Source: Bacteroides sp.
Lineage (GTDB): Bacteria > Bacteroidota > Bacteroidia > Bacteroidales > Bacteroidaceae
Direction: 5' to 3'
Assembly (NCBI GenBank): GCA_051878775.1
Contig: JBJEKT010000223.1
Location: 1,520 to 65,519, forward strand
DNA length: 64,000 nt
Part shown: piece by piece, positions 6,791 to 64,000 of the stretch
How the letters are laid out: every line of letters starts with the position of its first letter
Numbering within the stretch: the stretch's first letter is position 1
Program-made: the position numbers and the translations under genes
Notes under the pieces: generated by a model
What the model saw: only the letters and a program-made list of their open reading frames with translations
What the model was told of the DNA's origin: nothing
Database searches by the model: none

Positions 6791-7570
6791 TCAGCAGATG
6801 CGCAGCCGTACCCAGAGCCAGCGGGGAATCAGCTGCCAGAAGAAGACCAGCAGCCGGTAGAGCCCGTTGATGGTGACCACGGATTGACGGCGTTCTATGG
6901 CACGAACAATAGCTACAGCCACCTGCGCGGCATCCAGCTGCATGGGGAAGTGGCTGCCTTCGATGAGCGGTGTGCGAACGAACCCCGGGCGGATGTCGGT
7001 GATGTGGATGTGGTGCAGGCGCTTGATGTGCGCCAGCTGGCAGAGGCACTCCAGGTAGTGGCTTGTAAACCTTTTGGAGGCAGAGTAGGCCGGAGCCGCC
7101 CCAAGTCCTTTGGTACGTGCGATGGAGCTGATGACGGCCAGTTGTCCCTCCCTTTCGGGATGCGCCTCAAAGTAGCGGAACGCCTCGCCCACGAGCCGCG
7201 TCATACCTAGGCAGTTGGTTTCCACGGTGCGCAGCTCCTTCTCCGCCTCAAGCGGTGTGTTCTGGTAGCCGATGCCCGAGCTATGGAAGTAGAGCTCCAT
7301 GCTCCCCAGTTTACCGATAAGACGATGCAATCCCTCAGCAGCGTCAGCAGCCGTCACATCAATCACCTCGTACGCCACGATGCCCTCGTGCTCAGCGACC
7401 ATCCTGCGCAGTATCTCCTCCCGTCTGCCAGCCACGCCCACGTGCCATCCCTGCCGTGCGAGCAGCAGTGCCACCTCCTGTCCAATCCCCGAGGTAGCCC
7501 CCATGACAACGACCCTCTTCGGATACATCTCCTCTTTCTTTTCCTTTATCTTGTCTGTCATATCCTTCAT
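6791..7570 (-). CDS. Short-chain dehydrogenase/reductase
   Basis: GATSGIG Rossmann motif, YSASK catalytic motif, RPGFVRT. Confidence 0.9.
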   Translation of the reverse strand: MKDMTDKIKEKKEEMYPKRVVVMGATSGIGQEVALLLARQGWHVGVAGRREEILRRMVAEHEGIVAYEVIDVTAADAAEGLHRLIGKLGSMELYFHSSGIGYQNTPLEAEKELRTVETNCLGMTRLVGEAFRYFEAHPEREGQLAVISSIARTKGLGAAPAYSASKRFTSHYLECLCQLAHIKRLHHIHITDIRPGFVRTPLIEGSHFPMQLDAAQVAVAIVRAIERRQSVVTINGLYRLLVFFWQLIPRWLWVRLRIC

Positions 7571-7737
7571 GCAATGCTTCTGCTATGGTTTAAAAATTCA
7601 TCGGCAAAGATAGCCTTTTATGTTTGAACCACTACGCTAAGGGGTGAAAAAAAGGAGTTACCGTAGTAGTTTAACGCGATTTTTCCTATTACATATCAAA
7701 AAAACGATTATCTTTTCACCCAGACAATAGTGATGGT

Positions 7738-8564
7738 ATGACAGAGAACAGAATCATTGGACGCAAGCAGGAGATTCGCTTATTGGGTGAACTCTATGAC
7801 AGCCCTAAGGCTGAATTGGCAGCCGTGTATGGGAGACGACGCATCGGTAAGACATTCCTTATCGACAAACTTTTCGGTGGCCAATACGATTTCTACATGA
7901 CGGGTATCTATGAAGGTACTCGCAAGGAGCAACTGCAGAACTTTGTCTCAATGAACTGAAGTGTGAAGACACGGGATTCTTTTCAGAGGTGCTGGCCGAT
8001 CTCTGCAACTGCGACTTCATCCGTCGCTATTCAGCTTTCGGCAGGAGCGAACGTGATATGATGTATCAGCTGACTGACCTTTATACCTTGTTTTACCTGC
8101 GTCACGTCAGGACGTACAATGGGGGTGACGTAGATTATTGGAGCCACCGTCAGATGGACATCTCCCCGTGGGAGGGGTATGCGTTTGAGCAGGTATGCCT
8201 TCACCATATCCAGCAGATTAAGTCAGCCTTAGGCATCTCGGGCATATTGGCTAATGTCTGCTCCTTCTCTTGGCAGGCCTTCATTGACAAGGAGGGGAAG
8301 AACCATCGTGGAGGTCAGATAGACCTGATTATCGACCGTGGCGACAAGACAATCAATCTGTGTGAGATGAAGTATGTCAGCGGTAAATATGCCATTTCGC
8401 AGGAGTATGCTCACCGCCTCGTGGAGCGACGCGAGGCCTTCAGAAGCCTGACTTCGACAGATAAGTCCCTCAACCTGACCATGATTACAGCCGATGGCCT
8501 TGAACACAATGAAGGTTGGCATACCGTACAGAATGAGCTGACGTTGGATGATTTGTTTCAGTGA
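7738..8564 (+). pseudogene. Internally deleted archaeal-type ATPase (ATPase_2) with C-terminal PD-(D/E)XK-like domain
   Basis: N-fragment IIGRKQE...YGRRRIGKT stops at 7959; C-fragment in another frame (QIDLIIDR...NLCEMK); the Walker B/central region expected for the family is absent. Confidence 0.75.
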
Positions 8565-8565
8565 A

Positions 8566-8603
8566 AAAAAGGGGACCAGCCTTCTGGTGGCCAATCCCCT
8601 TTT
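8566..8603. terminator. Bidirectional terminator between convergent genes
   Basis: AAAAGGGGA...TCCCCTTTT stem. Confidence 0.55.
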
Positions 8604-8624
8604 CTCAAAGAACGTCTGGAATGC

Positions 8625-9059
8625 TTATTTGATTTCGATTACCTTGCACTCCTTGGCTTTCTCGTCCTGAGTCTTTTGCTTCTTCGGCAGGTCAATGGTC
8701 AGCACGCCATCGTTGACGGCGGCACTGATGTGCTCCTTCTCCACGTCATCAGGCAGAATCAGTGTCTGCTGGAACTTAGAGTAAGAGAACTCGCGTCGCA
8801 GGTACTTGTTGTTGTTATCCTTCGTCTCGTTTTTCTTCTCCATCGAGATGACAAGCTGGTCTTCATCGGCCAAATGTACGCAGAAGTCCTCCTTGGTCAT
8901 ACCTGGAGCAGCCACTTCCACTTTGTAATCCGTCTCGTTTTCGATGACATTCACGGCCGGTGTTGTAGCGTTAGCTTTCGTCATCCAGTCGTTGTCAAAG
9001 AAATCACTAAAGATACTCGGTAACCATTCTTGATTGTTTCTTCTTACGGGTGTCATCAT
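8625..9059 (-). CDS. Hsp20/alpha-crystallin small heat-shock protein
   Basis: PAVNVIE...VAAPG, RREFSYSKF, AAVNDGVLTIDLPK. Confidence 0.95.
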   Translation of the reverse strand: MMTPVRRNNQEWLPSIFSDFFDNDWMTKANATTPAVNVIENETDYKVEVAAPGMTKEDFCVHLADEDQLVISMEKKNETKDNNNKYLRREFSYSKFQQTLILPDDVEKEHISAAVNDGVLTIDLPKKQKTQDEKAKECKVIEIK

Positions 9060-9125
9060 TTTAATCTCCTATAATTTAATTGTTTAACTTCTATCTTGAT
9101 TGCTTTCGCAATACACCCATGGTTG

Positions 9126-9142
9126 GGCAAAAGCTGTGCCTA
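9126..9142 (-). promoter_or_regulatory. Sigma54-like -24/-12 promoter for hsp20
   Basis: Minus strand TAGGCACAGCTTTTGCC, i.e. GG-N10-GC, about 65 bp upstream of the start codon. Confidence 0.55.
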
Positions 9143-9230
9143 TCCCCCACTAGGCCGGAGATGAAGCGTGACGTTTAACCCCCGTTGCACATTCAGGCGC
9201 AGAATTTATACATGTGCAAACATTGACGTG

Positions 9231-9281
9231 GACAAAATGTCTGCATAGTGGACAAATTGTCACCAGGATTGACAAAGCATC
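9231..9281. promoter_or_regulatory. Three GACA-N3-TGTC-type boxes at 20-bp spacing upstream of hsp20
   Basis: GACAAAATGTC (9231), GACAAATTGTC (9251), degenerate GACAAAGCATC (9271). Confidence 0.5.
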
Positions 9282-9441
9282 ATTTCTTTGTGCCCGTCGG
9301 CCTTTTCGGACAGCAATAGTCAATGATGACAAGCAAATCTTCCTATAGTTTTATCGTAGGGTTATAAATCTTAACAAGTAATTCTAAAGAACCTCTAAGG
9401 TAACTCTATGGTAACTCTGTTGCAAGGCTAAAGTGAAGCCC

Positions 9442-9524
9442 ATATGAAGTCGATATGAACTCGATGAATCTCTACTATTTCATCGACTTCATATCGAGTT
9501 CATATCGAGTTCATATCGAGTTCA
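9442..9524. repeat. 11-bp tandem repeats (CATATCGAGTT) arranged as a 27-bp-arm inverted repeat
   Basis: 9442-9468 is complementary to 9479-9505 with 2 mismatches; further direct copies run to 9524. Confidence 0.75.
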
Positions 9525-9768
9525 CCCCCTAGTTACTTTAGTGTAAGTATAGAGGAACGTTAGATTGGCTGTTGAGGAGCGCCCTCCATGAGTGCGAAAG
9601 AAAAATATAGACAATAGGACATTGTTTACCTTTTAACGCACTTGTTCTATTGCAAGAGCAAGAACAGGGAAACTGATGCCGACTGAGAAAATTCCACCAA
9701 GAAAGTTTGTTTATTGGATAGAATGCCTTAATTTTGTACACGTAAGTTGAACATAAAACCTGAAACGT

Positions 9769-49528: not shown

Positions 49529-50080
49529 ATGATTGACGAAATAATTGCTTACAACAAGTCCTTCGTGGAAAAGAAGGGTTACGAGAAATACCTGACGGAT
49601 AAGTATCCTGATAAGAAGTTGGCTGTGCTCTCCTGCATGGACACTCGCCTTACGCAGCTGCTGCCCTCGGCGTTAGGGTTGAAGAACGGTGACGCCAAGC
49701 TCATCAAGAACGCCGGTGGGTTGGTCATTTCAGCCTTCGACTCGGCCATGCGAAGCCTCATTGTGGCCATCTACGAGCTGGGTGTGGAGGAGATTATGGT
49801 GGTGGCTCACTCGCATTGCGGCGCCTGCCACATGAGCTACGACCACTTTCATCACGCCATGATAGCCCGTGGCGTGACCGACCAGACGCTGGACACCATC
49901 CAGAAGTGCGGCATTGACCTGCACCACTGGTTGGAGGGTTTCAAGGACACGCACGAGTCGGTGCGCAAGACGGTGGAGACCATCGTGACCCATCCGCTCG
50001 TGCCGAGCGACGTGGTGGTGCGCGGCTTCATCATCGACTCCGAAACAGGTGAACTCGAAGAGGTGGATTGCCTGGAATAA
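49529..50080 (+). CDS. Beta-class carbonic anhydrase
   Basis: CMDTR, KNAGG, HSHCG zinc motifs. Confidence 0.92.
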   Translation: MIDEIIAYNKSFVEKKGYEKYLTDKYPDKKLAVLSCMDTRLTQLLPSALGLKNGDAKLIKNAGGLVISAFDSAMRSLIVAIYELGVEEIMVVAHSHCGACHMSYDHFHHAMIARGVTDQTLDTIQKCGIDLHHWLEGFKDTHESVRKTVETIVTHPLVPSDVVVRGFIIDSETGELEEVDCLE

Positions 50081-52413: not shown

Positions 52414-52935
52414 TCACGAGGTCTGCATAGCCCTTGCCCGTAGCGTATTCACGGTGGATGACATACTCGTTGCGTGCCCAGATATAGGCAATGATGTATT
52501 CACTGAGTCGTAAGCCCCCGTGGTAGCCAAATAGCTCCGATACCAGTCATCCTCTATGGCCCGCATGACGGAATATGGATTGTATATATGCGATTCGTTT
52601 CCTATTTTAATGACGCCTTGCTTCTTCTTTAGGTCTTTTTCTATCGCTGTCAGTACGGTTTCTATCAGTGTGAGCTTAGTGTCTTCATAGTTTTCAAACT
52701 GCCAACTGTTAAACTGTATCTGAGCAACTTTTTCCTTTTTATTGGCTTCTTCTTTCATCCATTGGTCAATGCCCTCTTTCATCAAGAGCATCAGACTGCT
52801 CTTCCCTGAACCCCAATCACCGAATATTCCTATGGTAATTGGGAGCATGGTTGAATCAAGAACCACCTCTTTCAGAAGGTCTGCATGAACTTGATAGCCC
52901 AACAGGTCTTCATTTGTCTCATTATCTGCCCACAT
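52414..52935 (-). pseudogene. Truncated KAP-family P-loop NTPase (QatA-like N-terminus) joined to a fragment of another AAA-ATPase-like gene
   Basis: MWADNET..IGIFGDWGSGKSS..FNSWQFE, then an abrupt switch to IGNESHIYNPYSVMRAI..SY..TGAYD; no Walker B. Confidence 0.75.
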
Positions 52936-52950
52936 ATCTTCTATCCTCCT

Positions 52951-53649
52951 TTATTTCTTTATTAACAATAATTCCGGGTGCTCAAGTTCCTCCACTAACT
53001 TGTCAACCATCGTGCAAGGCTTATGGGTTGCATAGTCGGTGCCAGTGTATAATGCACGTAGCTGCTGGGCAAAGCGCTTGGCCAGATTCTCGCGGCCATA
53101 CTGCTGGAGTAGGCTGTATATATCAGGGTTGCCTTTCCGATACTTAAAAGTCTCGTCACCCATTCTGTTTCTAAAAGATTCTTCGAGTTTCTCAATATAG
53201 TCAGAGCGGCTGATGCCTGTATCAAGGTATTCAAAGTGCAGGTAGTACCATAGTTCAAAGGCTTCGTTCGTCCAAGCACTGTGGAAGCCCAACTTATGGG
53301 CTTTTTTGATGGCTTCGTTGAAGTCTTCAAAGTCATCCTTATCAAAAACGACCCACACGCGGTCAAAAGTCATGGCATTCTTCCGCTCCAGTTCCGTTTT
53401 TATTTCCTGCGTTCTATCCACCAGAGCAACTGTTGCCCGGCCCTCGCCCTCAATCGTCACCTCGCGAACGGCTGAGATGAAATTATTGATAAGAGCCTTG
53501 AAGTAGTGCGGCTCTGTCTTCGTACCTTCACAGACTATGAGGAAACGCACTAGTTTTTCGCGGATGTTCTCCTTGCGTTTCTTGGCAGCCTTGGCTTCTT
53601 TACGTTCCCGCCTCAGCTTTGCGATTTCTTCTTTTCTCGAATATCCCAT
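52951..53649 (-). CDS. RloB-like (AbiLii-like) protein
   Basis: LIVCEG.KTEPHYF, VWVVFDKD, NEAFELWYYLHF. Confidence 0.88.
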   Translation of the reverse strand: MGYSRKEEIAKLRRERKEAKAAKKRKENIREKLVRFLIVCEGTKTEPHYFKALINNFISAVREVTIEGEGRATVALVDRTQEIKTELERKNAMTFDRVWVVFDKDDFEDFNEAIKKAHKLGFHSAWTNEAFELWYYLHFEYLDTGISRSDYIEKLEESFRNRMGDETFKYRKGNPDIYSLLQQYGRENLAKRFAQQLRALYTGTDYATHKPCTMVDKLVEELEHPELLLIKK

Positions 53650-53658
53650 AGCACCACT

Positions 53659-54924
53659 TTATTTTCCAATGAAAGGTATGGCACCATAGCGGCCACGAAT
53701 ATAGTCGCGCTTGATGTCACGGTCGTTGCGCACTTTTTTCCCGTCCTCGTCCTTGAACTCCACAAGCGAGTAGATGTCAGTAGACTCAACCTTGTCCTTC
53801 TCTGCAAACCAAATCTGATCACGACGAATAATCTCCAAATCAAGCAGATTGGTGTCGTGGGTGGCGAAAATCAGCTGTGCTCCGTGTCTATTCTTCTCTG
53901 GATCCATGAACAGAAGTACGATGTTGCGCGTCAGCAGTGGGTGAAGCTTGGCATCCAGTTCATCGACAATCAGCGTCTTGCCCTCGTTCAGCGTATCGAA
54001 TATTGGGCCGGAAATCTCTATCACTTTCTTCGTCCCCTCTGACTCCATCTGGTTCTTGTGGAAATTGCGCTCGCCGATTACCAGCCCTTTTTCGTCATAT
54101 ACATGATGAGTGGTTATCGGCTCGACTACATTCCCTGTCGCCAAGTCCTTCTCGAACTGTGACCTTAACGACCTTGGGGCACTGTCGAATGCCTCTTTTG
54201 GAATATCAACCTTCTTGACAGAAAAACGGGTAAAGCCCAGTTGCAGGGTCTTGAAGAACTCCTGTGCCTGGTCAGCTCCATTCAGATGTTCCAAAAACAA
54301 TCTGAGCGTAAATGCCTCGTAGCCTTCGCTGTCGATTCCAGAAAGTACATTGCATTCTCCAAACCAGCCCAATATGGAATTGGACTTCTCGCCCTTCAGC
54401 TGAGCTACAAGCGACAGGAAGAGGCGATTTGAGTTTGTCAAGTCTTCCTTTCCCTGACCCTCTATAAATCTTTTAGGAGATACCTCTATAATATCTCGTG
54501 AACGCACGAAGAGCTCGTACTCTTTCTCTCCAAACCGTTTCTCGTATAGCCACTCTGAGATAATGTCAGTTTTGTTGTATTCGAAGCCATAGCGATAAAG
54601 CACCTCTGCATTAATGAATTGTATCTCAAACAATGTTGGTTGGGAATCAGAGCTTTCATCCAATGCAAAAGGATCATAGGGTAGTGCATCACCTTCATTA
54701 AGCCTGACGGAACGCCTAACCATGCTACGCATAGTAGATATGGCCTGAATCAAGTTACTCTTGCCCCCAGAGTTGGCACCATACAAGACTGCCAACGGAA
54801 GCAAACTATACTTACCTTCGCTGATTACAGACTCTTTATGCTCCTTTATGGAACTCGCCTCCATACTAAAGGTTCGTTCCTGTTTGAAAGAGCGATAATT
54901 CTTAACTGTGAAATTTACTAGCAT
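53659..54924 (-). CDS. RloA-like AAA_21 ATPase (AbiLi-like)
   Basis: NYRSFK, YGANSGGKSN, ESEGTKK, VDELDAKLHP, QLIFATHD, GRYGAIP. Confidence 0.9.
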   Translation of the reverse strand: MLVNFTVKNYRSFKQERTFSMEASSIKEHKESVISEGKYSLLPLAVLYGANSGGKSNLIQAISTMRSMVRRSVRLNEGDALPYDPFALDESSDSQPTLFEIQFINAEVLYRYGFEYNKTDIISEWLYEKRFGEKEYELFVRSRDIIEVSPKRFIEGQGKEDLTNSNRLFLSLVAQLKGEKSNSILGWFGECNVLSGIDSEGYEAFTLRLFLEHLNGADQAQEFFKTLQLGFTRFSVKKVDIPKEAFDSAPRSLRSQFEKDLATGNVVEPITTHHVYDEKGLVIGERNFHKNQMESEGTKKVIEISGPIFDTLNEGKTLIVDELDAKLHPLLTRNIVLLFMDPEKNRHGAQLIFATHDTNLLDLEIIRRDQIWFAEKDKVESTDIYSLVEFKDEDGKKVRNDRDIKRDYIRGRYGAIPFIGK

Positions 54925-55372
54925 ATCTCAATATTTTTGTGTAAAGATACAATTAATTTTCGATATAGGATGTATAATATGAGAAAAAATCTCAAAAATC
55001 GAGCATGTTTAACAAGATTTCGGTTTTATAAGGTTTGAAAATGCGAAAATGACTCGTTATTTTAACTTGGTTGAGTTTTTTGTGGGGTATGTATCTTATT
55101 GGGATATGACATATAATTACAAAACAAATTTGAGTATTCAAGATAACATTCTTCCATAGTTGCACATTCACACCTCTTTTGTGGTTTATAAATGTTAAAT
55201 ACATTAATTCTTCATCTTTTTCGCCTTACTCAGAATTTACGTCATCACTTTTCTACCGTTTAAAGTGTAAATTATTGATATAAAGCATTTTGCAAATACT
55301 ATCAATGATTCTGTAGCCCGGATGGGGTGAAAAAATGAAATCTCCCTTGATGCTGTATGCTGCCAGGGGGCG

Positions 55373-55717
55373 TCAGAGCACAGCTGCTGTACGACGGATG
55401 AGCTCCAGTCGCTGCATGAAGGATTTATCCTTGGTCATGGTCTGGAGGTTATATTTCATTTGCAGATGGAGCAGAGGCTCAGCATTGATGCCGAGAGCTG
55501 CCTCAAAGAGCAGTGCAGTCTTCTCCGTCAGGGGGCGATGACCGTTGAGGATTTCATTGAGTGCAGAGTTGGCGATGCCCATCTGCTTGGCCAGTTGGCG
55601 TTGGGAGATGCCACGATATTCCACTTCATCCTTGATGATTTCGCCCGGGTGAGTGGGATAAGCTGGGGTAAGGTTGTTTGCCACCATGTTTGCTGCAAAA
55701 GTCTTTTCGTTGTTCAT
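55373..55717 (-). CDS. higA: HigA family antitoxin (Xre HTH)
   Basis: PTHPGEIIKDE..ISQRQLA..NEILNGHRPLT..LQMKYNL. Confidence 0.85.
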   Translation of the reverse strand: MNNEKTFAANMVANNLTPAYPTHPGEIIKDEVEYRGISQRQLAKQMGIANSALNEILNGHRPLTEKTALLFEAALGINAEPLLHLQMKYNLQTMTKDKSFMQRLELIRRTAAVL

Positions 55718-55748
55718 TGTTCCTTAATCATAATGGTTAGACAATCTG

Positions 55749-55958
55749 TTATGTTGCATTTGCTAATATTACCCAGTGTCCGTCTTTACGCCCTCCTTCA
55801 CGTTTAATTATACCCTTCGATTGAAGGGCGGCGAGATCTCGTTTAATGGCTCGCTGAAGGCTGCTCTCTTTTTGGGACATCTTTTGGGACATCTTTTGGG
55901 ATGTAATAGTGTTATCTTCGGCAATCCGATGTTTTGGTCTTCTATCTTCATACGTCAT
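55749..55958 (-). pseudogene. C-terminal winged-HTH remnant with SQKM repeats
   Basis: SQKMSQKMSQK 12-bp repeats, then IKRDLAALQSKGIIKREGGRKDGHW, typical of Fic/ATP-binding protein tails. Confidence 0.55.
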
Positions 55959-56199: not shown

Positions 56200-57204
56200 A
56201 TGAGTGAACAAACCTATGCCATCTACACTTACGAGGTGAAACCTCGCGGGAACATGAAGCTTCAATTTGCAGGCTCCGACGACCTGAAGTTTGATATGAA
56301 CGATACGCCTGAAGAGAAGGCGCATCTGATTATCAACCATGTCATGACACACAGATTGACCGTAATAGGTAAAAAACGTAAGCAGGATGTTCCGCTCATC
56401 GTCAAGGAGCTGCACAGACACGGTGATGTCTTTGCGTTCGTGCTTTGCAACGAACGCGACATGACTTACTACGAGGGGAAGCAGAAGGAGAGCATCGTGA
56501 CGCACCCGGGATGCTACATCGTGGTGGATAACCGCAGGGGCGTGTGCCAGATTGCCATTGAGAAGGACGATGCGTTCGATATGGAGAGCAATCAGGCCGT
56601 AAAGTACCTGAGCCGCTCCTTCAATGACCGGCTGCACGACTATGGATTCGAGATTGTCATCAAGCACAAATTCAGCGCCGAATCCTTCACGAAGCAGATT
56701 AAGGAACGCCTCTTTGTACGGCGCGATGTGGTCACCCGCATTGTGTGGGATTTCCCCAATACCAAGCGGGTGATGGGTATCGATGCCACGGAGGAGCAGA
56801 GGCAGTGGCTCACCTCGATTGTCAATACGGCGGTTACGGCTAAAGCCCTGAGCGGTAAGCTGACGCTGGTGGGCAGCAAGCAGAATCCACTGGAGGCGGA
56901 CAGCGAATACAATCAGCAGATTGGCCTGATGATTATGCTCAGCGCGCAGAACGGTTACAACATCACCTACCACTTTGCCGACTCTGAGAAGATGTCGTTC
57001 AAGCACGCTTCACATGCCTTCATGACCATTAAGGAGGAGCTGATTCGGGACTTCATGCAGGGCGTGTCCGTGCATGGTGATGGGGTGGTGGGTGAAGAAT
57101 CTCCAGAGCCCACCTTCGAACTCATTTGGCGGCTGGATGACATACGGCGCGAGATTGTGACTTACAATCATGAGGATATCATCCGTACGGATGAGTATTG
57201 TTAA
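56200..57204 (+). CDS. Hypothetical protein (334 aa)
   Basis: Long ORF with good codon pattern and AT-rich leader; no recognised motif. Confidence 0.8.
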   Translation: MSEQTYAIYTYEVKPRGNMKLQFAGSDDLKFDMNDTPEEKAHLIINHVMTHRLTVIGKKRKQDVPLIVKELHRHGDVFAFVLCNERDMTYYEGKQKESIVTHPGCYIVVDNRRGVCQIAIEKDDAFDMESNQAVKYLSRSFNDRLHDYGFEIVIKHKFSAESFTKQIKERLFVRRDVVTRIVWDFPNTKRVMGIDATEEQRQWLTSIVNTAVTAKALSGKLTLVGSKQNPLEADSEYNQQIGLMIMLSAQNGYNITYHFADSEKMSFKHASHAFMTIKEELIRDFMQGVSVHGDGVVGEESPEPTFELIWRLDDIRREIVTYNHEDIIRTDEYC

Positions 57205-57228
57205 CCTGCTGAATATTATCTACATATC

Positions 57229-58158
57229 ATGGAACGACTACTAGAATATCCCCGCAGCAGGGAACTGAGGGTGAACTATCGCAACAACCCCTGGCTTCAG
57301 CTGATAACCAATTGCTTCCGTCCGCAGGAGGCTGTTATGCAGAAGTTCCGGTTCACGGCTGAGGAGCTGTGGCTGAACACCTTCATCTGCTTGGACGATG
57401 TCATTGCGCTGCCTGCAGGCGAGCGCGAAGCAGCCGTTGCCCGGCTATGGGACGACCTGAACTGTGAGCTGCGTAACGAGGCACTGGATTTGGGCCGGGA
57501 GTTTCAGGATGAGGAGCTCACGATGGTCACGAGCTGGGTCGTGTTCTTCGTCGCGGTGGCACTCGGATGGACCGAACGATCCGACCTCTACCGGTACAGC
57601 GAGACATTGCTCCAGCAGGTTGCGCGGCATCACGATGCGTTGCCTCAGCTGACCGAGGAGTATCTCAGCCGGTGTGACTCCTCCTTAGGCTCCTACATGC
57701 AGGAGCATCTGGCTCAAGGGGTGCGGCTCAGCGACCGCCTGTCTAAGCGCGGGGCTGACATTCTCCCTGCACAGCTTCCGCCCGCGAAGGTGGCCTCACT
57801 GAAGGAGGAGGCTATCAAGCTGCTCCTCTTCATGAAACGCCAGCTGAAGGATAGCACGAAGCCCGTCATGCGGCAGGGTGATTACGACCGGATGGTAGAG
57901 GCGATAGGTCGGTTTGTCACATCAAGGAGAGTCGAGCCAATCGAGCCTCCTATCCAGACCAACCTCAAGGCCACAGAGCTGAGATATACCTTCTACCTTG
58001 TATGGAAATATTGTTGGAAAAAGGATGTCGAGCGTGACAAGGTGGTAGACTTCCTAAAGGCTACATTCAGCCAATTCAGTGAGGTGGAAAGGGAGACCAT
58101 CAAGAAGAAATTCTCAGAAAAAGTGACGGGATATTCTTACATCATGGTGGTAAAATAG
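57229..58158 (+). CDS. Hypothetical protein (309 aa, mainly helical, basic C-terminus)
   Basis: Long ORF 24 bp after the previous gene. Confidence 0.8.
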   Translation: MERLLEYPRSRELRVNYRNNPWLQLITNCFRPQEAVMQKFRFTAEELWLNTFICLDDVIALPAGEREAAVARLWDDLNCELRNEALDLGREFQDEELTMVTSWVVFFVAVALGWTERSDLYRYSETLLQQVARHHDALPQLTEEYLSRCDSSLGSYMQEHLAQGVRLSDRLSKRGADILPAQLPPAKVASLKEEAIKLLLFMKRQLKDSTKPVMRQGDYDRMVEAIGRFVTSRRVEPIEPPIQTNLKATELRYTFYLVWKYCWKKDVERDKVVDFLKATFSQFSEVERETIKKKFSEKVTGYSYIMVVK

Positions 58159-58404: not shown

Positions 58405-58539
58405 ATGGACAAAGTAAAAACATTAGGAGATATCCTTAGGGATTTCTTTTCAGAGAGTAAGGAACCGCTTGCAGCTCATTACCGTCAATGGAGATGCCGC
58501 AAGCAGGAGTGTAGAATGTATATATGTAATCAATTATGA
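58405..58539 (+). CDS. Small protein (44 aa, MDKVKTLGDILRDFFSESKEPLAAHYRQW...)
   Basis: Below the ORF-track cutoff; its TGA overlaps the ATG of the next gene (ATGA at 58536-58539). Confidence 0.5.
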   Translation: MDKVKTLGDILRDFFSESKEPLAAHYRQWRCRKQECRMYICNQL

Positions 58540-59537
58540 AGATGAAAAGCTTGATAAAGAGAGGAATGATAGACTGGGTCAAGCTACCCGTCAATCTCGT
58601 AAGTGATGACCGTGTGGCTGAGCTCATGGCCCGGAAGGGCATGTTGGGGTTGGGCGTTTACTTCAGGATTGTGCTCGAGATGTACCATCGTAGGAGCCGT
58701 TGCCTGACCGTAATCCAGCTTAAAGAATTTAGGTTGAAGGGGGCCACGGAGAGGACCGTGATGCAGGTGGTGGAGGATTTTCAGCTGTTCCGCAAGGACA
58801 AGCACGGGCACATCTATTCGATGATTGATTTCCTCGGTTTCGGGGATGAGGATTCCAGTGTTGAGGATGAGGATTCCAGTGTTGAGGATGAGGATTCTTG
58901 TTCAGAGAATGAGGAATCCTGTCCCGAAGCAGAATCTGATTTAAATCCGATTGCAATCCGATTTGAATCTGATGCCTCTCCAATTCCCGCGCGCATAAAT
59001 AGAGACAAAGACAGAGACAATATTCTTCTTGAAGGAGAAGCAGCAGAACAGAGGGCAGGAGAGGGGGAGGTCCGGTCGCCGGAGGAGCGGGCTGGGGAGT
59101 ATATCCGGCAGCTGAAGATGGCGGACGAGTGGGCCGAACTCACCATGATGAAGTCGGGCTTCAGTCAGCTGCTTCTGCGCAGCTGGACGCAGGCCCTGGA
59201 GGAGTTCCGCAGGCACGTCGTGGTCAACCGCACAGCAGAGAGCATCCACGATGTAGAGTGTGCCAAGCAGTACTTCTCCCGCTACGTCACCAACGCCACC
59301 ACGGGCGCTCAGCTCCGCAAGGCGCTGGAGGAGTACGAGCGGACGCAGCAGGGCAGCAGCCCCTACAGCCACGAGGACCGCAACAGCGCCCCGGGTCACC
59401 GCTCTTACCACGGCTTCCCCTTGCCCGACGACGCCCCACCGCGTCCCGACGAACAGTCGGAGTGGGACTACGAGGAGCATTGCTGGACCTGTTGCCGCCA
59501 TGCCCAGGAGGATAAGTATGCCACTGAGCAGTTCTAA
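58536..59537 (+). CDS. DUF4373/Lin1244-like putative replication initiator (replisome organiser type)
   Basis: N-terminal WVKLPVNLVSDDRV..GMLGLGVYF; internal tandem repeats; C-terminal LPDDAPPRP; precedes a primase-helicase. Confidence 0.65.
   Translation: MKMKSLIKRGMIDWVKLPVNLVSDDRVAELMARKGMLGLGVYFRIVLEMYHRRSRCLTVIQLKEFRLKGATERTVMQVVEDFQLFRKDKHGHIYSMIDFLGFGDEDSSVEDEDSSVEDEDSCSENEESCPEAESDLNPIAIRFESDASPIPARINRDKDRDNILLEGEAAEQRAGEGEVRSPEERAGEYIRQLKMADEWAELTMMKSGFSQLLLRSWTQALEEFRRHVVVNRTAESIHDVECAKQYFSRYVTNATTGAQLRKALEEYERTQQGSSPYSHEDRNSAPGHRSYHGFPLPDDAPPRPDEQSEWDYEEHCWTCCRHAQEDKYATEQF
58844..58976 (+). repeat. Intragenic iteron-like repeats (4x21 bp, then 4x11 bp)
   Basis: GGATGAGGATTCCAGTGTTGA x2 exact plus 2 degenerate; AATC(C/T)GAT x4 at 11-bp spacing. 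Confidence 0.8.
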
Positions 59538-59610
59538 ACAGCCCGTTTGCACCCCGTAAACAGCATGGTTAGGGATGTATTATGCAGCACCTCAATGGAT
59601 GAAGGACCAT

Positions 59611-59685
59611 TTTTAGCTTTTAGTTTATAGTTTATAGTTTTTAGTTTATAGTTTAATTGTTTTTAGTTTAATTGTTTTTAGTTTT
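59611..59685. repeat. Heptamer tandem array (TTTTAGT/TTATAGT)
   Basis: About 10 degenerate 7-mers immediately before the primase-helicase ATG. Confidence 0.85.
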
Positions 59686-59690
59686 CTCCT

Positions 59691-61514
59691 ATGACTTACA
59701 ATTTGAAATCCTATGGCATTGACCGTGAACATGCCACTCCCGTGAATGGGCAGAACGCCCTGCGTGCCATCTGTCCCCACTGCTCCTCTTCGCGCAAGAC
59801 CGAGGCTCACCGGCACGAAAAGGTGCTCTACGTCAACCTCGACAACGGCTCCTGCTACTGCCACCACTGCGGTGCCCAGTGGCGCATGGACTCTGAGGAG
59901 TACCTGGCCCGACGCGACAAGGCCCGCCAGCTGGCCCAGGCTCCCTCCACCTTCCGCCGCCCCAAGCAGCCCAAGCCGCTCCCCGAGGGGGCCGACCAGG
60001 ACTACAGCAAGGTATTCAGCTCCACCACCCTCCGCTACCTCACCCAGGTGCGCGGCATCCCCCTCGACGTGCTGCGCCAGGCCGCCGTCACCGAGCAGGT
60101 GGAGCGGATGCCGCAGACGGGACGCGACGAGCGCTGCATCGTCTTCAACTACATGGAGCAGGGATTCCTCATCAACCAGAAGTTCCGCGACGCGAAGAAG
60201 AACTTCAAGATGGTGCAGGGGGCCGAGCTCATCCCGTACCTCATCGACAGCTGCCTGGGCGAGGAGGAGGTCATCGTCACTGAGGGCGAGATGGATGCCC
60301 TCTCCTTCCTGGCCGCCGGGTTCCGCAGCGTGATCAGCATCCCCTCAGGGGCCAACGGCAACGCCGGCTGGATGAACCGCTTCTACGACCTCTACTTCAG
60401 CGACAAGCAGCGCGTCTATATCGCTACGGACATGGATGCCCCCGGGCAGCAGGCCGCCGAGGAGCTGATACGCCGCTTCGGGCCTGAAGTGTGCCTCAGG
60501 GTGCAGTTCAGCGCGGGATGTAAGGACGCCAACGAGGAGCTGCTGAAGCACGGGGCCGACAGCCTGCGCAGCCGCATCACCGAAGCGCAGCTCGTCCCCC
60601 TGAAGGACATCAACCGCCTGGAGGACTTCGAGACGGAGCTCGACGCCTTCTATGCCAACGGCCCGGAGCCGGGGGCCGTCACGGGATGGGCCAACCTCGA
60701 TGCTGTGGTCAACTTCGGCACCGGCCAGCTGGCCCTCGTCACCGGACGCTCCAACGACGGCAAGTCGGAGTGGGTCGATGAACTGGTGCTCCGCCTCATG
60801 CTGCGCACGGGCTGGAATGCCGCCTTCTGGACGCCGGAGAACGGGCTGCTGGACCACAGCCGCAAGGTGATCGAGAAGCTCACGGGGCGCGACTTCGTAC
60901 ACCGGGGTACCTCGGGCGTGCAGCCCGCACAGTATGCCCTCTGCAAGCGCTGGATGAACCGCCGCCTCTGCTGGCTCGACCTCCCCTTCGACCAGCTGCA
61001 CCTGGACATCATCCTGGAGCGTTGCCGCACCATGGTGCGCAAGTTCGGCATCCGCATCCTCGTGCTCGACCCCTACAACTTCATCGAGAAGGAGAACAAC
61101 TCCACCCGCTCGGAGAACGCCTGGGATAGCCACGTGGTGGGGGCTCTGCGCGAATTTGCCCGCAGTCACGACGTGCTCGTCATCCTCGTGGCCCACCCGC
61201 GCAAGGTGGAGATGCAGCTCGACGGGCGTAAGCGACGCATCACCATGGAGGACATCAGCGGCACCGCCGACTTTGGCAACAAGGCCGACTACTGCTTCTG
61301 CGTGGACCGCGACGACGAACACCGCGTGGTGACCATCTCCATCGACAAGGTGCGCTTCAAGCAGTACGGCACCAAGGGCCATCAGCTCTACTTTGTCTAT
61401 CAGACCAGGTGCGGCCGATACTGCCCCTGCAAGCTCGATGCCAACCATGACACGGTGGACTGCGACTTCAAGTCCGGCGCCGGCATGTGGCTCCAGCCGC
61501 AACTGTTTGATTAG
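59691..61514 (+). CDS. Bifunctional primase-helicase (T7 gp4/Twinkle-like)
   Basis: Zn ribbon CPHC..CHHC, TOPRIM VTEGEMD/ATDMDAPG/KDANE, SF4 helicase GRSNDGKS, LVLDPYN, LVAHPRK, DISGTADF. Confidence 0.9.
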   Translation: MTYNLKSYGIDREHATPVNGQNALRAICPHCSSSRKTEAHRHEKVLYVNLDNGSCYCHHCGAQWRMDSEEYLARRDKARQLAQAPSTFRRPKQPKPLPEGADQDYSKVFSSTTLRYLTQVRGIPLDVLRQAAVTEQVERMPQTGRDERCIVFNYMEQGFLINQKFRDAKKNFKMVQGAELIPYLIDSCLGEEEVIVTEGEMDALSFLAAGFRSVISIPSGANGNAGWMNRFYDLYFSDKQRVYIATDMDAPGQQAAEELIRRFGPEVCLRVQFSAGCKDANEELLKHGADSLRSRITEAQLVPLKDINRLEDFETELDAFYANGPEPGAVTGWANLDAVVNFGTGQLALVTGRSNDGKSEWVDELVLRLMLRTGWNAAFWTPENGLLDHSRKVIEKLTGRDFVHRGTSGVQPAQYALCKRWMNRRLCWLDLPFDQLHLDIILERCRTMVRKFGIRILVLDPYNFIEKENNSTRSENAWDSHVVGALREFARSHDVLVILVAHPRKVEMQLDGRKRRITMEDISGTADFGNKADYCFCVDRDDEHRVVTISIDKVRFKQYGTKGHQLYFVYQTRCGRYCPCKLDANHDTVDCDFKSGAGMWLQPQLFD

Positions 61515-61588
61515 CTACGAGCCACCATGAATCCCTATTCATTAATCCCTAATCCGTAATCATTAATCGCTAATCCCTAATCACAAAA

Positions 61589-61816
61589 ATGACGGACATA
61601 TTCCCTCTTCGGGCTTACGGCAAGGCAGAGCTGGCGCAGCTCTACTTTCCCGATGCCGACCCTGTGGTGGCTGCCAACCGCCTGCGCCGCCAAATTGAGC
61701 GTGCCTATGGACTCCTGCAGGCGCTGGAGCCTACGGGCTACCCCTCACGCGCCCACTTCTTCACCCCGCGCCAGGTGGCCATCATCGTCCGTTTCCTGGG
61801 CGAACCGCTGGGTTAA
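61589..61816 (+). CDS. DUF4248 domain protein
   Basis: YGKAELAQLYFP...TGY...FTPRQVAIIVRFLGEP. Confidence 0.85.
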   Translation: MTDIFPLRAYGKAELAQLYFPDADPVVAANRLRRQIERAYGLLQALEPTGYPSRAHFFTPRQVAIIVRFLGEPLG

Positions 61817-61975
61817 GCCAGTTTTTTCTATCATTTTGCACAGCTACATGCAATATGCACAGTAAGCGTCACTGCCAAAATAGAATGTCGTAACTTTGCA
61901 TCGTAATCCAAAGGGTAGGGCCCACCCGGGTAGGTTACAGTGTAGATAACCAAACTAATAATTGTTTTACAGCGT

Positions 61976-62488
61976 ATGGTAAAATTTGTATTGCGTCAGA
62001 ACAAGAATGAGCAGAGCTCGGCTTACGGCAAATGGTATGCCTATCCGCAGCCCGACGAGACGATGGACCTGGCCGCCCTGGCCAAGCACATGGAGGAACA
62101 CAACACGGGCTTCTCCGAGGCCATGTGTACCGGCGTGATGAAGGCCATGGTGAAGTGCATCAAGGAGCAGATCCTCTCCGGCAAGAACGTGAAGATTGAC
62201 GACCTGGCCATCTTCTCCATCGGCCTGAAGAACCGCATGGGCTCCGCCACACCCGAGGAGTTCAGCGTAGCCACCAACATCGAGGGGGTGAAGCTGCGTG
62301 CCCGTGCCACGGGTATCCTGAGCAACGCCCAGCTCACCCTGTCGGCCAGTCTGAAGCGGGCCACCAGCATCCTGGGCGGTACCAGCAGCGGCTCTGGCAG
62401 CAGCGGCAACACTGGCGGCAGCAATGACAACACCGGCGGCGGCAGCAGCTCCGGCGGCAGTGGCGATGACCTCCCTGGCTACGAGTAA
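61976..62488 (+). CDS. Bacteroidetes HU-like (HU-HIG) DNA-binding protein with Gly/Ser tail
   Basis: GKWYA..LAKHM..GKNVKIDDLAIFSIGL; TAACTTTG -7 box at 61891. Confidence 0.85.
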   Translation: MVKFVLRQNKNEQSSAYGKWYAYPQPDETMDLAALAKHMEEHNTGFSEAMCTGVMKAMVKCIKEQILSGKNVKIDDLAIFSIGLKNRMGSATPEEFSVATNIEGVKLRARATGILSNAQLTLSASLKRATSILGGTSSGSGSSGNTGGSNDNTGGGSSSGGSGDDLPGYE

Positions 62489-62544
62489 ACCACGAGGGGG
62501 TACGCTCCCTTACCCATCACTCCGTGTCTGCGTAATTCATAACC

Positions 62545-62576
62545 TGTAGGGGCAGACACATCGGTCCGCCCCTACA
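62545..62576. repeat. GTAG-type REP-like palindrome
   Basis: TGTAGGGGCAGAC-loop-GTCCGCCCCTACA. Confidence 0.65.
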
Positions 62577-62695
62577 CTAAACGCCCCATGAAGAATAGTC
62601 AGCCAGTAATGATTCATTATAAATGGTTCATTGTAAATGGTTCATTGTAAATGGTAAATCGTTGATTATTAATTTTAAATTTTAAATTGAATCCC

Positions 62696-62800
62696 ATGAC
62701 CCCTGAAAATAAGAAAAAGTTAATCAAGTTCATCTGGAATCTGCTCACCTCACTGATGACAGCCATAGGTACTGCCCTGGGCGTAAGCAGCTGTTTCTAA
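62696..62800 (+). CDS. 'Smalltalk'-type peptide (34 aa, MTPENKKKLIKFIWNLLTSLMTAIGTALGVSSCF)
   Basis: Basic N-terminus, one hydrophobic helix, terminal LGVSSC; typical position between HU-like and cell-wall-enzyme genes. Confidence 0.8.
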   Translation: MTPENKKKLIKFIWNLLTSLMTAIGTALGVSSCF

Positions 62801-62847
62801 TCCCTAATCCCTTATCTCTAATCCCCTAATCCCTTATCCCTAAAAAA

Positions 62848-63270
62848 ATGCATCTCATCCTGCAACGTACCGAGCGGGGGTTCCTCTACACCATGGGAAC
62901 CCTCGCCATCGACGGGGAGCCCTTCTGCGACACCCTGGAGCCTACTGACCGTCACCTCACGGCGGAGACCATGCAGCCCGGTCAGAAGGTGTTTGGCCGC
63001 ACGGCCATCCCCACAGGCTGTTACCCCGTGGTGCTCACTTACTCCCCGCGCTTCCACCGCACGCTTCCCCTGCTGCGCGGCGTGCCCTGCTTCGAGGGCA
63101 TCCGCATCCACACGGGCAATGTCTCCACCGACACGGGCGGCTGCATCCTCGTAGGCCGTCGCCAAGCCCCGGGCCGGATTACTGACAGCCGCGCCACCCT
63201 GCGTCAGCTCCTCGACCACCTTGCCCGCCGTCCCCCTGCCGACCCCATCACCCTCCAGGTCACGGAGTAA
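62848..63270 (+). CDS. DUF5675 family protein (phage-associated, His/Cys motif)
   Basis: GTLAIDG..CDTLE..TAIPTG.Y..SPRF..GIRIHTGN..DT.GCILVG. Confidence 0.85.
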   Translation: MHLILQRTERGFLYTMGTLAIDGEPFCDTLEPTDRHLTAETMQPGQKVFGRTAIPTGCYPVVLTYSPRFHRTLPLLRGVPCFEGIRIHTGNVSTDTGGCILVGRRQAPGRITDSRATLRQLLDHLARRPPADPITLQVTE

Positions 63271-63295
63271 CCGCCGCATCAGGTGGCCTGCTAAC

Positions 63296-63330
63296 AAAAA
63301 TCCCAGGGGCAGTAGCCTTTGGGATTTTTT
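63296..63330. terminator. Bidirectional terminator
   Basis: AAAAATCCCAGGGGC-AGTA-GCCTTTGGGATTTTT. Confidence 0.7.
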
Positions 63331-63563
63331 CAGCAAGTGGTACTATGCTCATAGAGGTATTCTGGAGCAATATCTGCTCCGTTGGCCCATTCTATGGTAT
63401 TTCGGGTAAGACCGTATTGCACGAATTTTTCCCGGTCAATCAGTTCTCCAAACACCTCTCCTTGCAACATGGGCTTGAAGTCCATGCGCTTTCTGGTTCC
63501 GTCGCTGAACGTCATTTCCAGCACGTAGTCTTTGATATAGTCCACATCGATTACCCTAATCAT
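63330..63563 (-). CDS. DUF2442 protein (putative antitoxin)
   Basis: Y.L..TFSDG..DF..L.GEVF..L..TIEWANGADIAPEYLY. Confidence 0.85.
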   Translation of the reverse strand: MIRVIDVDYIKDYVLEMTFSDGTRKRMDFKPMLQGEVFGELIDREKFVQYGLTRNTIEWANGADIAPEYLYEHSTTC

Positions 63564-63570
63564 ACTGACA

Positions 63571-63828
63571 CTATTTTAAAGGTTCTATTTTATCAATCTT
63601 CTCACCTTTTTGGGCTTTCTCCCACAAAGATAAGATTTCTGTCTCATGAAGGTCAATCCACTCATTCACTTTGGCGATGACTTTTGCAGGTGCCTTGCCA
63701 TCAACTATCCTGTCGAGTACGCTGATAGAGCAGGTGTAGTCTCCGTATTCAAAATGAACATGAGGAGGGTTATGATCCTTCCAATATAAGAAAATGATGA
63801 TTCCAAAGAATCGACAAATCTCAGGCAT
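63571..63828 (-). CDS. DUF4160 protein (putative HicA-like toxin)
   Basis: MPEICRFFGIII..DHNPPHVH..Y..W..KIEPL. Confidence 0.88.
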   Translation of the reverse strand: MPEICRFFGIIIFLYWKDHNPPHVHFEYGDYTCSISVLDRIVDGKAPAKVIAKVNEWIDLHETEILSLWEKAQKGEKIDKIEPLK

Positions 63829-64000
63829 ATCAATTATATTTTATACTGACTGTTGCAAAGATAAGGGATTTAATCTACCGATGATGTGACTATATTATTA
63901 AAATATATTAATAATAAGAGGCTTGCGAGAAATCTTGTGCTCTTGCAACGAAAAAGAGGAAACTCCATCAGGAATTTCCTCTCTTCTTCCGGGTGACTAG

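Follow-up and report, generated by a model that had tools for sequence, protein, structure and literature searches.

Can phage-type replication genes and lysis-type genes persist together on a bacterial chromosome as a unit in their own right, with no capsid gene and no integrase gene beside them? This question is raised by a 64,000-nucleotide stretch of Bacteroides sp. DNA (hereafter the window; GenBank assembly GCA_051878775.1, contig JBJEKT010000223.1, positions 1,520 to 65,519), whose nearest relatives are Bacteroidaceae and which occurs in sequencing runs recorded mostly as pig gut. The window carries a cassette of seven co-oriented open reading frames (ORFs), encoding a 44-amino-acid (aa) peptide, a predicted replication initiator, a primase-helicase, the small hallmark protein DUF4248, an HU-HIG protein, a smalltalk protein and DUF5675, a predicted wall enzyme (Table 1); the remainder consists of housekeeping and sugar-use genes. 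The cassette is likely one copy of a long-lived Bacteroidales chromosomal cassette. Our tentative reading, to which we give a probability of roughly 0.4, is that it may be a domesticated, inducible replicon that fires in place and is coupled to a lysis module, resembling Bartonella run-off replication without a capsid.

Gene content and conservation of the cassette

A preliminary description of this DNA had listed the seven genes, intact primase-helicase motifs, a closing terminator, flanking defence and toxin-antitoxin (TA) genes, and the lack of terminase, capsid, tail, relaxase and integrase genes in the window, and all of this was borne out. ORF calls and family matches recovered the seven genes on the + strand. 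The cassette is closed by a hairpin at about 63294-63330 (z -4.55), where a consensus terminator scan gave no match, and the flanks matched AbiL-like, KAP/QatA-like, HigA and DhiT/DhiA-like families. No terminase, capsid, tail, relaxase or integrase was found among the scanned window proteins, a 259-aa ORF at 6791 lying outside the scan.

The sister genome G274 carries the same cassette genes, with 79-89% nucleotide identity over the cassette. Ratios of nonsynonymous to synonymous substitution (dN/dS) between the window and G274 were 0.15 for the primase-helicase, 0.20 for DUF4248, 0.19 for HU, 0.04 for smalltalk, 0.19 for DUF5675 and 0.47 for the initiator; for the two genes just upstream, they were 0.07 (334 aa) and 0.17 (309 aa). 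Across 14 sister pairs, with saturated or distant comparisons dropped and 5-11 pairs left per gene, the medians were 0.13 for the primase-helicase (11 pairs), 0.18 for the initiator (7), 0.12 for HU (9), 0.12 for DUF4248 (7) and 0.06 for the amidase found in related cassettes (5). The cassette is thus under purifying selection, with dN/dS mostly 0.04-0.3, and the neutral decay that the preliminary description had proposed to check by dN/dS over homologues is not what these values, far below 1, indicate. The same description had noted that an integrase or structural genes just past the window would mean an ordinary prophage. In G274 the cassette is followed by an intact tRNA-His and then 17 kb of ordinary host-type or housekeeping genes (judged from ORF starts, with no Pfam scan); no integrase match was found in the 20 kb beyond the tRNA side, and no structural phage gene in the orthologous locus.

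The primase-helicase in two genomic contexts

The motif residues of the primase-helicase (28 and 57, presumably the Zn finger; 197/245/278, presumably TOPRIM; 352 and 457, which we take to be Walker A and Walker B; and 500, 522 and 553) are conserved in a 15-sequence alignment. We collected 176 loci encoding homologs (20 from relatives, 79 of 80 from genomes and 77 of 80 from viral contigs), giving 177 with the window and 157 after duplicate removal; some loci are cut short. Classified by profiles, 73 of the 177 carried cassette genes, 69 carried phage genes (RecE-like nuclease, helicase, terminase or portal), 35 carried neither and none carried both. The labels are defined by those very genes, so the informative figures are the empty "both" class and the count of integrases, which lie outside the label definition: 3/73 cassette loci compared with 30/69 prophage loci. 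DUF4248 was present at 0/69 prophage loci, and the cassette loci contained an HU gene in 65/73 and an amidase gene in 57/73 cases. The enzyme matches a phage-type family, phrog_239, and an initiator homolog precedes it in 68 of the 73 cassette loci and 60 of the 69 prophage loci.

In a quick maximum-likelihood tree of 87 rows picked from the 157, 38 cassette rows and 3 unassigned rows, among them the window, formed one clade (Shimodaira-Hasegawa-like approximate likelihood ratio test, SH-aLRT, 100) that held no phage row, with 2 label changes. A FastTree of all 157 rows placed the 60 phage rows on one side of a single branch. The replication pair has a common ancestry with that of tailed prophages, and we infer that the cassette is an old lineage rather than the product of recurrent prophage decay. 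A clade of their own for the cassette enzymes, taken together with purifying selection, argues against ordinary prophage decay. Judged from its sequence, the cassette is a real and conserved unit and not a decaying prophage.

Origin-like repeats within the initiator gene

The initiator gene contains 21-bp repeats (58837-58920), which are in frame and whose copy number differs between strains, followed by four out-of-frame 11-bp repeats at 58933-58976 and an A-rich purine tract. Iterons had been claimed here; the repeats are present, and the 11-bp array is a better iteron candidate than the in-frame, strain-variable 21-bp set. Repeats and an A-rich tract inside the initiator gene are the layout of lambdoid origins, and the segment is best described as a predicted origin. 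Clustered repeats occurred in 65/114 homologous initiator genes, compared with 6/60 primase stretches and 1/40 codon shuffles. The enrichment lies in the initiator linker and is common to cassette and phage genes, and some genes have no repeats. Gene position and the internal repeats together suggest the initiator role.

A family of cassettes with conserved roles and exchanged modules

The source genome contains at least seven cassettes (C223, C93, C219, C28, C83, C6 and C17) as well as fragments. Their replication slot holds a gp4-like pair, a BT4734/PriCT-2/DUF3987 protein, AAA_25 with CHC2/DUF6371, or CHC2-Toprim; their last slot is filled by one of three unrelated folds (amidase, M15 peptidase or DUF5675); and their HU slot holds HU-HIG or, in two copies, an unrelated DUF6266-like protein. 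With three wall-enzyme folds and at least four sets of replication enzymes, it is the roles that are conserved and not the genes, and modules are exchanged between copies. Both DUF3987 and VirE have been predicted to be helicases belonging to mobile-element primases (PMC5862659). Many cassette copies sit inside capsular or exopolysaccharide loci.

DUF4248, likely a DNA-binding regulator, was present in 13 of the 151 genomes sampled from the whole order, at 1-9 copies each. Among 34 genomic DUF4248 loci, a replication gene was matched at 19, HU at 19, an integrase at 5 and a terminase or portal at 0. On viral contigs, an integrase lay nearby at 12/19 DUF4248 loci and a Mu-type transposase at 2/19, so that "integrase-less" is true of the window copy and most of its clade and not of all relatives. 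Ten loci (L291, L295-L302 and L304) are integrase-pair elements that gave no primase-helicase match and carry DUF4248, amidase and HU beside a different Lin1244-type initiator. In one genome a tyrosine integrase stands beside all four DUF4248 genes (L232-L235), a hint that DUF4248 may act in regulation or like an excisionase. A Mu-type transposase and ATPase cluster lies downstream of the cassette in several Bacteroides genomes (L029 13306-18592, L031, L057, L058 and L061). DUF4248 also occurs in 12 records deposited as faecal "Bacteriophage sp."; these are linear and unverified, and the cassette-bearing ones include chromosomal flanks.

A PDB sequence search with the HU protein gave no significant match. 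Six HU-slot ORFs of the source genome end in the same short C-terminal tag. Within a genome, unrelated proteins that occupy the HU slot of separate cassettes have a common Gly-rich tail with identical last residues (window 62462-62488 and C83, C28, C93, C219 and C80 of G000; L317 and L320). The tag varies from genome to genome, and in G275 a different one ends both HU and a 160-aa protein unrelated to it. The sharing could be due to gene conversion among the copies or to a common binding partner.

The DUF6266-like protein belongs to a very diverse family (3390 clusters) and aligns over about 270 residues with the sole candidate structural gene of MT836516 (hhalign 97%, E 5e-11). MT836516 is a 10-kb virus-like record (L279; the stretch of interest is 7393-9763) encoding a single-stranded-DNA-binding protein, a 522-aa ORF that is presumably Rep-like, a DUF6266-like protein with an Ig domain, a holin-like ORF, an M15 peptidase and a lipoprotein, with no recognised capsid; it may represent an unclassified small virus group. 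As a capsid candidate the DUF6266-like protein was rejected: no fold match exceeded Z 3.8 (Ig-like), and a single viral model gave E 2e-8 with a template modelling score (TM) of 0.41. No relatives appeared in four viral-contig scans, and two broad alignments were too variable to serve as queries. The homology to the virus-like record is a lead only.

Lysis-type genes

The smalltalk protein is 88-97% identical to its sister-species copies, with dN/dS of 0.04-0.05 in four comparisons. It has the shape of a bare signal peptide, with one hydrophobic stretch (mean 1.55) and a lipobox one residue before the stop. Among 27 distinct members, 17 have an AxA motif and 4 a lipobox just ahead of the stop, so that 21 carry a signal-peptidase-like end; this renders doubtful the holin role assigned in the preliminary description. 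The protein may be a holin, a lipid anchor or a peptide precursor.

A PDB sequence search with DUF5675 gave no significant match. Its model (predicted local distance difference test, pLDDT, 96) matched Pgp2 (Z 10.0, root-mean-square deviation 2.6, 109 residues aligned), Csd6 (Z 9.0) and Tlde1a (Z 8.5); the top 20 rows of the fold search were all of L,D-transpeptidase fold, and the next unrelated row scored 3.5. H88 and C99 are at least 90% conserved in 57 sequences. DUF5675 is thus predicted to adopt an L,D-transpeptidase (YkuD/C82-like) fold with a His/Cys pair, in agreement with the classification of a phage DUF5675 lysin candidate as C82-like (10.64898/2026.04.11.717860).

Flanking genes and mobility features

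Table 1. Features of the cassette and its flanks (window positions)
Feature	Position	Strand	Remarks
Defence/TA cargo: truncated KAP/QatA-like gene, AbiL-like RloB + AAA_21 pair, lone HigA	52414..55958	-	Strain-variable joints
334-aa protein, no Pfam, DUF4747-like lead	56200..57204	+	Accompanies cassette; 94% identity, same position in G274
309-aa protein, no family	57229..58158	+	Accompanies cassette; 89% identity in G274
44-aa peptide	58405..58539	+	ORF overlapping initiator start; no family; 76% identity over 46 aa in G274
Predicted replication initiator, 333 aa, Lin1244_N (= DUF4373) + DUF7833	58536..59537	+	Both Pfam domains above cut-off
Origin-like segment inside initiator gene	58837..59030	.	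3 x 21-bp repeats, 4 x 11-bp repeats, A-rich purine tract
Primase-helicase, T7 gp4/Twinkle-type, 607 aa, Toprim + DnaB_C	59691..61514	+	phrog_239 E 8e-79; motifs intact
DUF4248, small hallmark protein	61589..61816	+	Pfam 89.8 bits
HU-HIG protein, Gly-rich tail + genome-specific C-terminal tag	61976..62488	+	Pfam HU-HIG
Smalltalk protein, 34 aa	62696..62800	+	NCBIfam NF033879, 18.4 bits, under 24.7 cut-off
DUF5675, predicted peptidoglycan peptidase of L,D-transpeptidase fold; no signal peptide	62848..63270	+	Fold model
Terminator-like hairpin, bidirectional	about 63294-63330	.	z -4.55; 0/200 shuffles
DUF4160/DUF2442 (DhiT/DhiA-like) TA pair	63330..63828	-	Below NCBIfam cut-offs; deletion joints in other strains; largely absent in G274
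tRNA-His(GTG) 3' end	63991..64000	-	Contig ends 26 bases further on, inside tRNA; intact at same place in G274

Two further co-oriented genes upstream (56200-58158) accompany the cassette and, like the tRNA-His at the window end, had been overlooked in the preliminary description. The DUF4747 lead for the 334-aa protein is an atlas annotation on 11% of one cluster, and paralogs of this protein precede two other cassettes; the 309-aa protein had no Pfam, PHROG, NCBIfam or PADLOC match. A DUF4747-like 334-aa gene followed by a gene for about 310 aa stands upstream of three cassettes with differing replication modules (window 56200-58158; L001 3933-5832; L321 12304-14181). A pairwise comparison of the 309-aa and 318-aa upstream proteins gave no significant match. 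Tandem heptamer repeats of three kinds lie between cassette genes (59610-59684, 61520-61587, 62608-62653 and 62796-62843), and such arrays are common genome-wide.

Within the cargo, the KAP/QatA-like gene at 52414-52935 is truncated, and 55749-55958 is what is left of the 3' end of a 405-aa gene, which G274 has in full. By sequence comparison, the cargo zone appears to be decaying and the cassette conserved. Contigs of three other runs skip 443 bases (window 49611-50055) in the region of the carbonic anhydrase gene.

The tRNA-His was rejected as an attachment (att) site: neither the genome nor the window has a second copy of the tRNA 3' end, a terminator of its own follows the tRNA, and the tRNA is intact in G274. 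A tRNA or transfer-messenger RNA gene was found in just 4 of 71 related loci scanned, so the link to a tRNA is not general. The corresponding cassettes of close relatives lie at tRNA-His (window and G274), at truA (G275) and near tRNA-Lys (G351), which indicates that relocation or rearrangement occurs. The four integrase matches in the source genome are all on other contigs. Two records were considered as free replicons and rejected: a 190-kb B. ovatus circle from a plasmid database also contains housekeeping genes along with a conjugative transposon and a prophage, and a 3850-bp B. finegoldii record contains a piece of the initiator only, with no terminal overlap. The plasmid-database matches look like chromosomal pieces.

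All four gut DNA runs contained the cassette with the same flanks next to it. Parts of the primase-helicase gene are covered by RNA contigs from four metatranscriptomes, a weak signal in which DNA contamination is possible and uncovered stretches are uninformative. A depth spike in the 59342-60008 bin was set aside as due to intergenic heptamer repeats common in the source genome.

A proposed cycle and the evidence against it

Under the in-place replicon reading, DUF4248 or a host signal would hold the operon nearly silent. Upon induction, the initiator would bind the 11-bp repeats in its own gene, melt the A-rich tract and load the primase-helicase, and the host polymerase would copy outwards without excision, as in Bartonella run-off replication. 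The HU-like protein might then coat the amplified DNA, and smalltalk and the L,D-peptidase would breach the envelope. The released DNA, bearing capsule, defence and TA genes together with the cassette, could reach kin via vesicles, particles of co-resident phages or uptake. In this way a minor part of the population, once induced, would set free many copies of the DNA around the cassette, and delivery to kin would account for the cassette being both kept and relocated.

Several observations weigh against this reading. Contig depths, which come from uninduced metagenomes and assembled contigs rather than reads and are not copy numbers, gave no amplification in three of the four runs, with the cassette at flank level (e.g., 27-30 vs 29-30); the fourth showed 17.9 vs 8.8 over 55.3-59.6 kb, but the primase gene stood at 10.4, the roughly twofold excess being confined to the left half. 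No circular joint was seen in gut DNA contigs, no att repeat or duplication and no terminal repeats were found at the window cassette, and terminase, capsid and portal (phrog_2, PF05065 and PF04860) were not found in the source genome, which is 80% complete. The smalltalk protein looks more like a signal peptide than a holin. G275 lacks DUF5675 at its corresponding cassette, so that lysis and replication parts are separable, and 6 of the 34 genomic DUF4248 loci have no partner match at all. At one orthologous polysaccharide site compared across 30 genomes, the initiator is present in 15, reduced to fragments in 4, absent in 7 and unclear in 4, a pattern of long vertical residence with repeated loss. 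Purifying selection, moreover, cannot separate host benefit from selfish spread. As for the phylogeny, the window enzyme sits on a long branch (1.09), three divergent cassette rows fall outside the clade on a long branch, and the 87-row tree is unrooted and without bootstrap.

Alternative explanations

Selfish spread is a possible but unlikely explanation, in which a non-autonomous mobile element would have its own origin, borrow recombinase and vehicle from a helper (a prophage or a conjugative or mobilisable transposon) and use the lysis genes to time its escape. The differing sites in close relatives, the at least seven copies in the source genome, the integrases at 12/19 viral-contig and 5/34 genomic DUF4248 loci, the Mu-type transposase at two viral-contig loci and the TA and defence cargo at both ends are consistent with it; against this stand the lack of a terminal repeat or att duplication, a site kept across species and flank-level depth in 4/4 samples, and most of the integrase-linked versions lack a primase-helicase and have an initiator of another subfamily. 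Quite unlikely, in our estimate, is a capsid-less gene-transfer system or captured non-tailed virus that upon induction would amplify the chromosome around it, coat this DNA with the HU-slot protein (HU-HIG or the DUF6266-like protein that small virus-like genomes also have), sort it by means of the genome-specific C-terminal tag and a small membrane peptide, release it by lysis and so drive capsule and defence exchange between strains. The narrower case of a captured minimal non-tailed virus, whose replicon, DNA coat (HU-HIG or DUF6266-like), small membrane protein and endolysin would yield nucleoprotein or membrane-wrapped particles, is distinctly improbable. It draws on the homology of the DUF6266-like protein to the candidate structural gene of MT836516, on the diversity of that family (its 3390 clusters) and on DUF4248 in the 12 faecal phage records, but there is no capsid fold (best Z 3.8), no viral-contig relative in four scans and no excision system, the records are linear and unverified, the cassette-bearing ones with chromosomal flanks, and the window copy has HU in place of DUF6266.

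An abortive-infection module, with phage triggering runaway replication and the wall enzyme so that the cell dies before the phage matures, and with the HU-like protein as decoy or sensor, is similarly hard to favour and on balance improbable. The position among AbiL-like and TA genes, the fast turnover of the initiator beside a conserved helicase, and the proposal that HU-HIG proteins intercept invading DNA (Burroughs et al., PMC5499826) would suit it; yet PADLOC gave no match for cassette genes bar a weak Toprim, a full origin, initiator and primase-helicase exceed what a suicide switch needs, and many copies are found not in defence islands but in polysaccharide loci. It is very unlikely that two loosely linked units are involved, namely an envelope-remodelling or signalling operon (HU-like protein, smalltalk peptide precursor and wall enzyme) and a repair or restart replication pair with no cycle of amplification and release. 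The AxA or lipobox ends of 21/27 smalltalk members, the existence of HU-smalltalk-amidase trios and lone DUF4248 genes without replication genes, and the cross-talk or channel formation suggested by Sberro et al. (10.1101/494179) point that way, whereas HU in 65/73 and amidase in 57/73 cassette loci, and a linkage that recurs with four unrelated replication sets, point to a single unit. Finally, that the cassette is the neutrally decaying remnant of an ordinary prophage, or part of a prophage continuing past the contig, is highly improbable and already largely refuted: the replication pair common to tailed prophages, the tRNA neighbour and decayed copies elsewhere fit it, but the separate clade, dN/dS far below 1, DUF4248 at 0/69 prophage loci and housekeeping genes past the tRNA in G274 do not.

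Gut Bacteroidales carry several DUF4248-marked cassettes per genome, often in capsular or exopolysaccharide loci, and the genes are annotated as unrelated hypotheticals. Should the cassettes be inducible replicons that fire in place and bear lysis genes, capsule and defence loci could be exchanged by way of them, extracellular DNA and vesicles could stem from them, and they could give rise to false "phage" and "plasmid" calls in gut data; functions would also be assigned to DUF4248, DUF4373/DUF7833, HU-HIG, smalltalk, DUF5675 and DUF6266.

Comparison with known systems

The cassette fits no known family tested. Phage-inducible chromosomal islands and Staphylococcus aureus pathogenicity islands (PICI/SaPI) are small satellites with a primase-helicase, an iteron origin, defence cargo and no full capsid set. 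The window cassette likewise has a primase-helicase, defence cargo and no capsid set, together with repeats that may form an origin; unlike them, its site has no integrase, att or packaging-redirection gene, and it has a wall enzyme and a long vertical residence. The satellite label of the preliminary description fails for want of an integrase, none being found in the window or in the 20 kb past the tRNA in G274, and no att repeat was seen. Tailed Bacteroidales prophages share the homologous initiator and primase-helicase pair, its order and the repeats within the initiator gene, but differ in having an integrase, RecE-like nuclease, helicase, terminase and portal, in never having DUF4248, and in forming a separate clade.

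Sberro et al. (10.1101/494179) described a trio of DNA-binding protein, small membrane protein and amidase, often near VirE (small-protein family #350024, the smalltalk family NF033879), and proposed cross-talk or channel formation and DNA translocation. The same tandem arrangement of DNA-binding protein, membrane protein of about 33 aa and wall enzyme is found here, with DUF5675 as the wall enzyme instead of the amidase. In the available part of that text, VirE counts as a virulence gene, and there is no mention of a replicon or origin, of DUF4248, of phage ancestry, or of selection or the exchange of modules. The cassette is likewise not described in the available parts of PMC8530359, PMC6231650 and PMC10434189, and no description of a replicon-bearing cassette was found in the open-access literature, subscription papers lying outside that scope. 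The claim of an undescribed element thus holds for the link to a replicon and fails for the HU-smalltalk-amidase trio. More broadly, what stands of the original reading is a replicon of phage descent that is conserved, has repeats resembling an origin and comes with a predicted wall hydrolase; the holin, satellite and "undescribed" parts are weakened.

In Bartonella, the run-off replication (ROR) locus of the gene transfer agent BaGTA (brr genes, PMC5496983) combines a chromosome-fixed phage-derived origin, a TOPRIM gene, a helix-turn-helix regulator, in-place amplification and lysis of an induced subpopulation. A chromosome-fixed, phage-derived replicon under selection is what the window shares with this class. 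BaGTA has capsid, baseplate and tail-fibre genes; no particle genes were found in the 80%-complete source genome by scans for three families (terminase, capsid and portal), and the source genome has several copies with swapped enzymes. The HU-HIG family was described as an HU domain with a Gly-rich tail, expanded in Bacteroidetes and nearly lacking conserved operon links (Burroughs et al., PMC5499826); here, by comparison, 65 of the 73 cassette loci link HU-HIG to a replicon.

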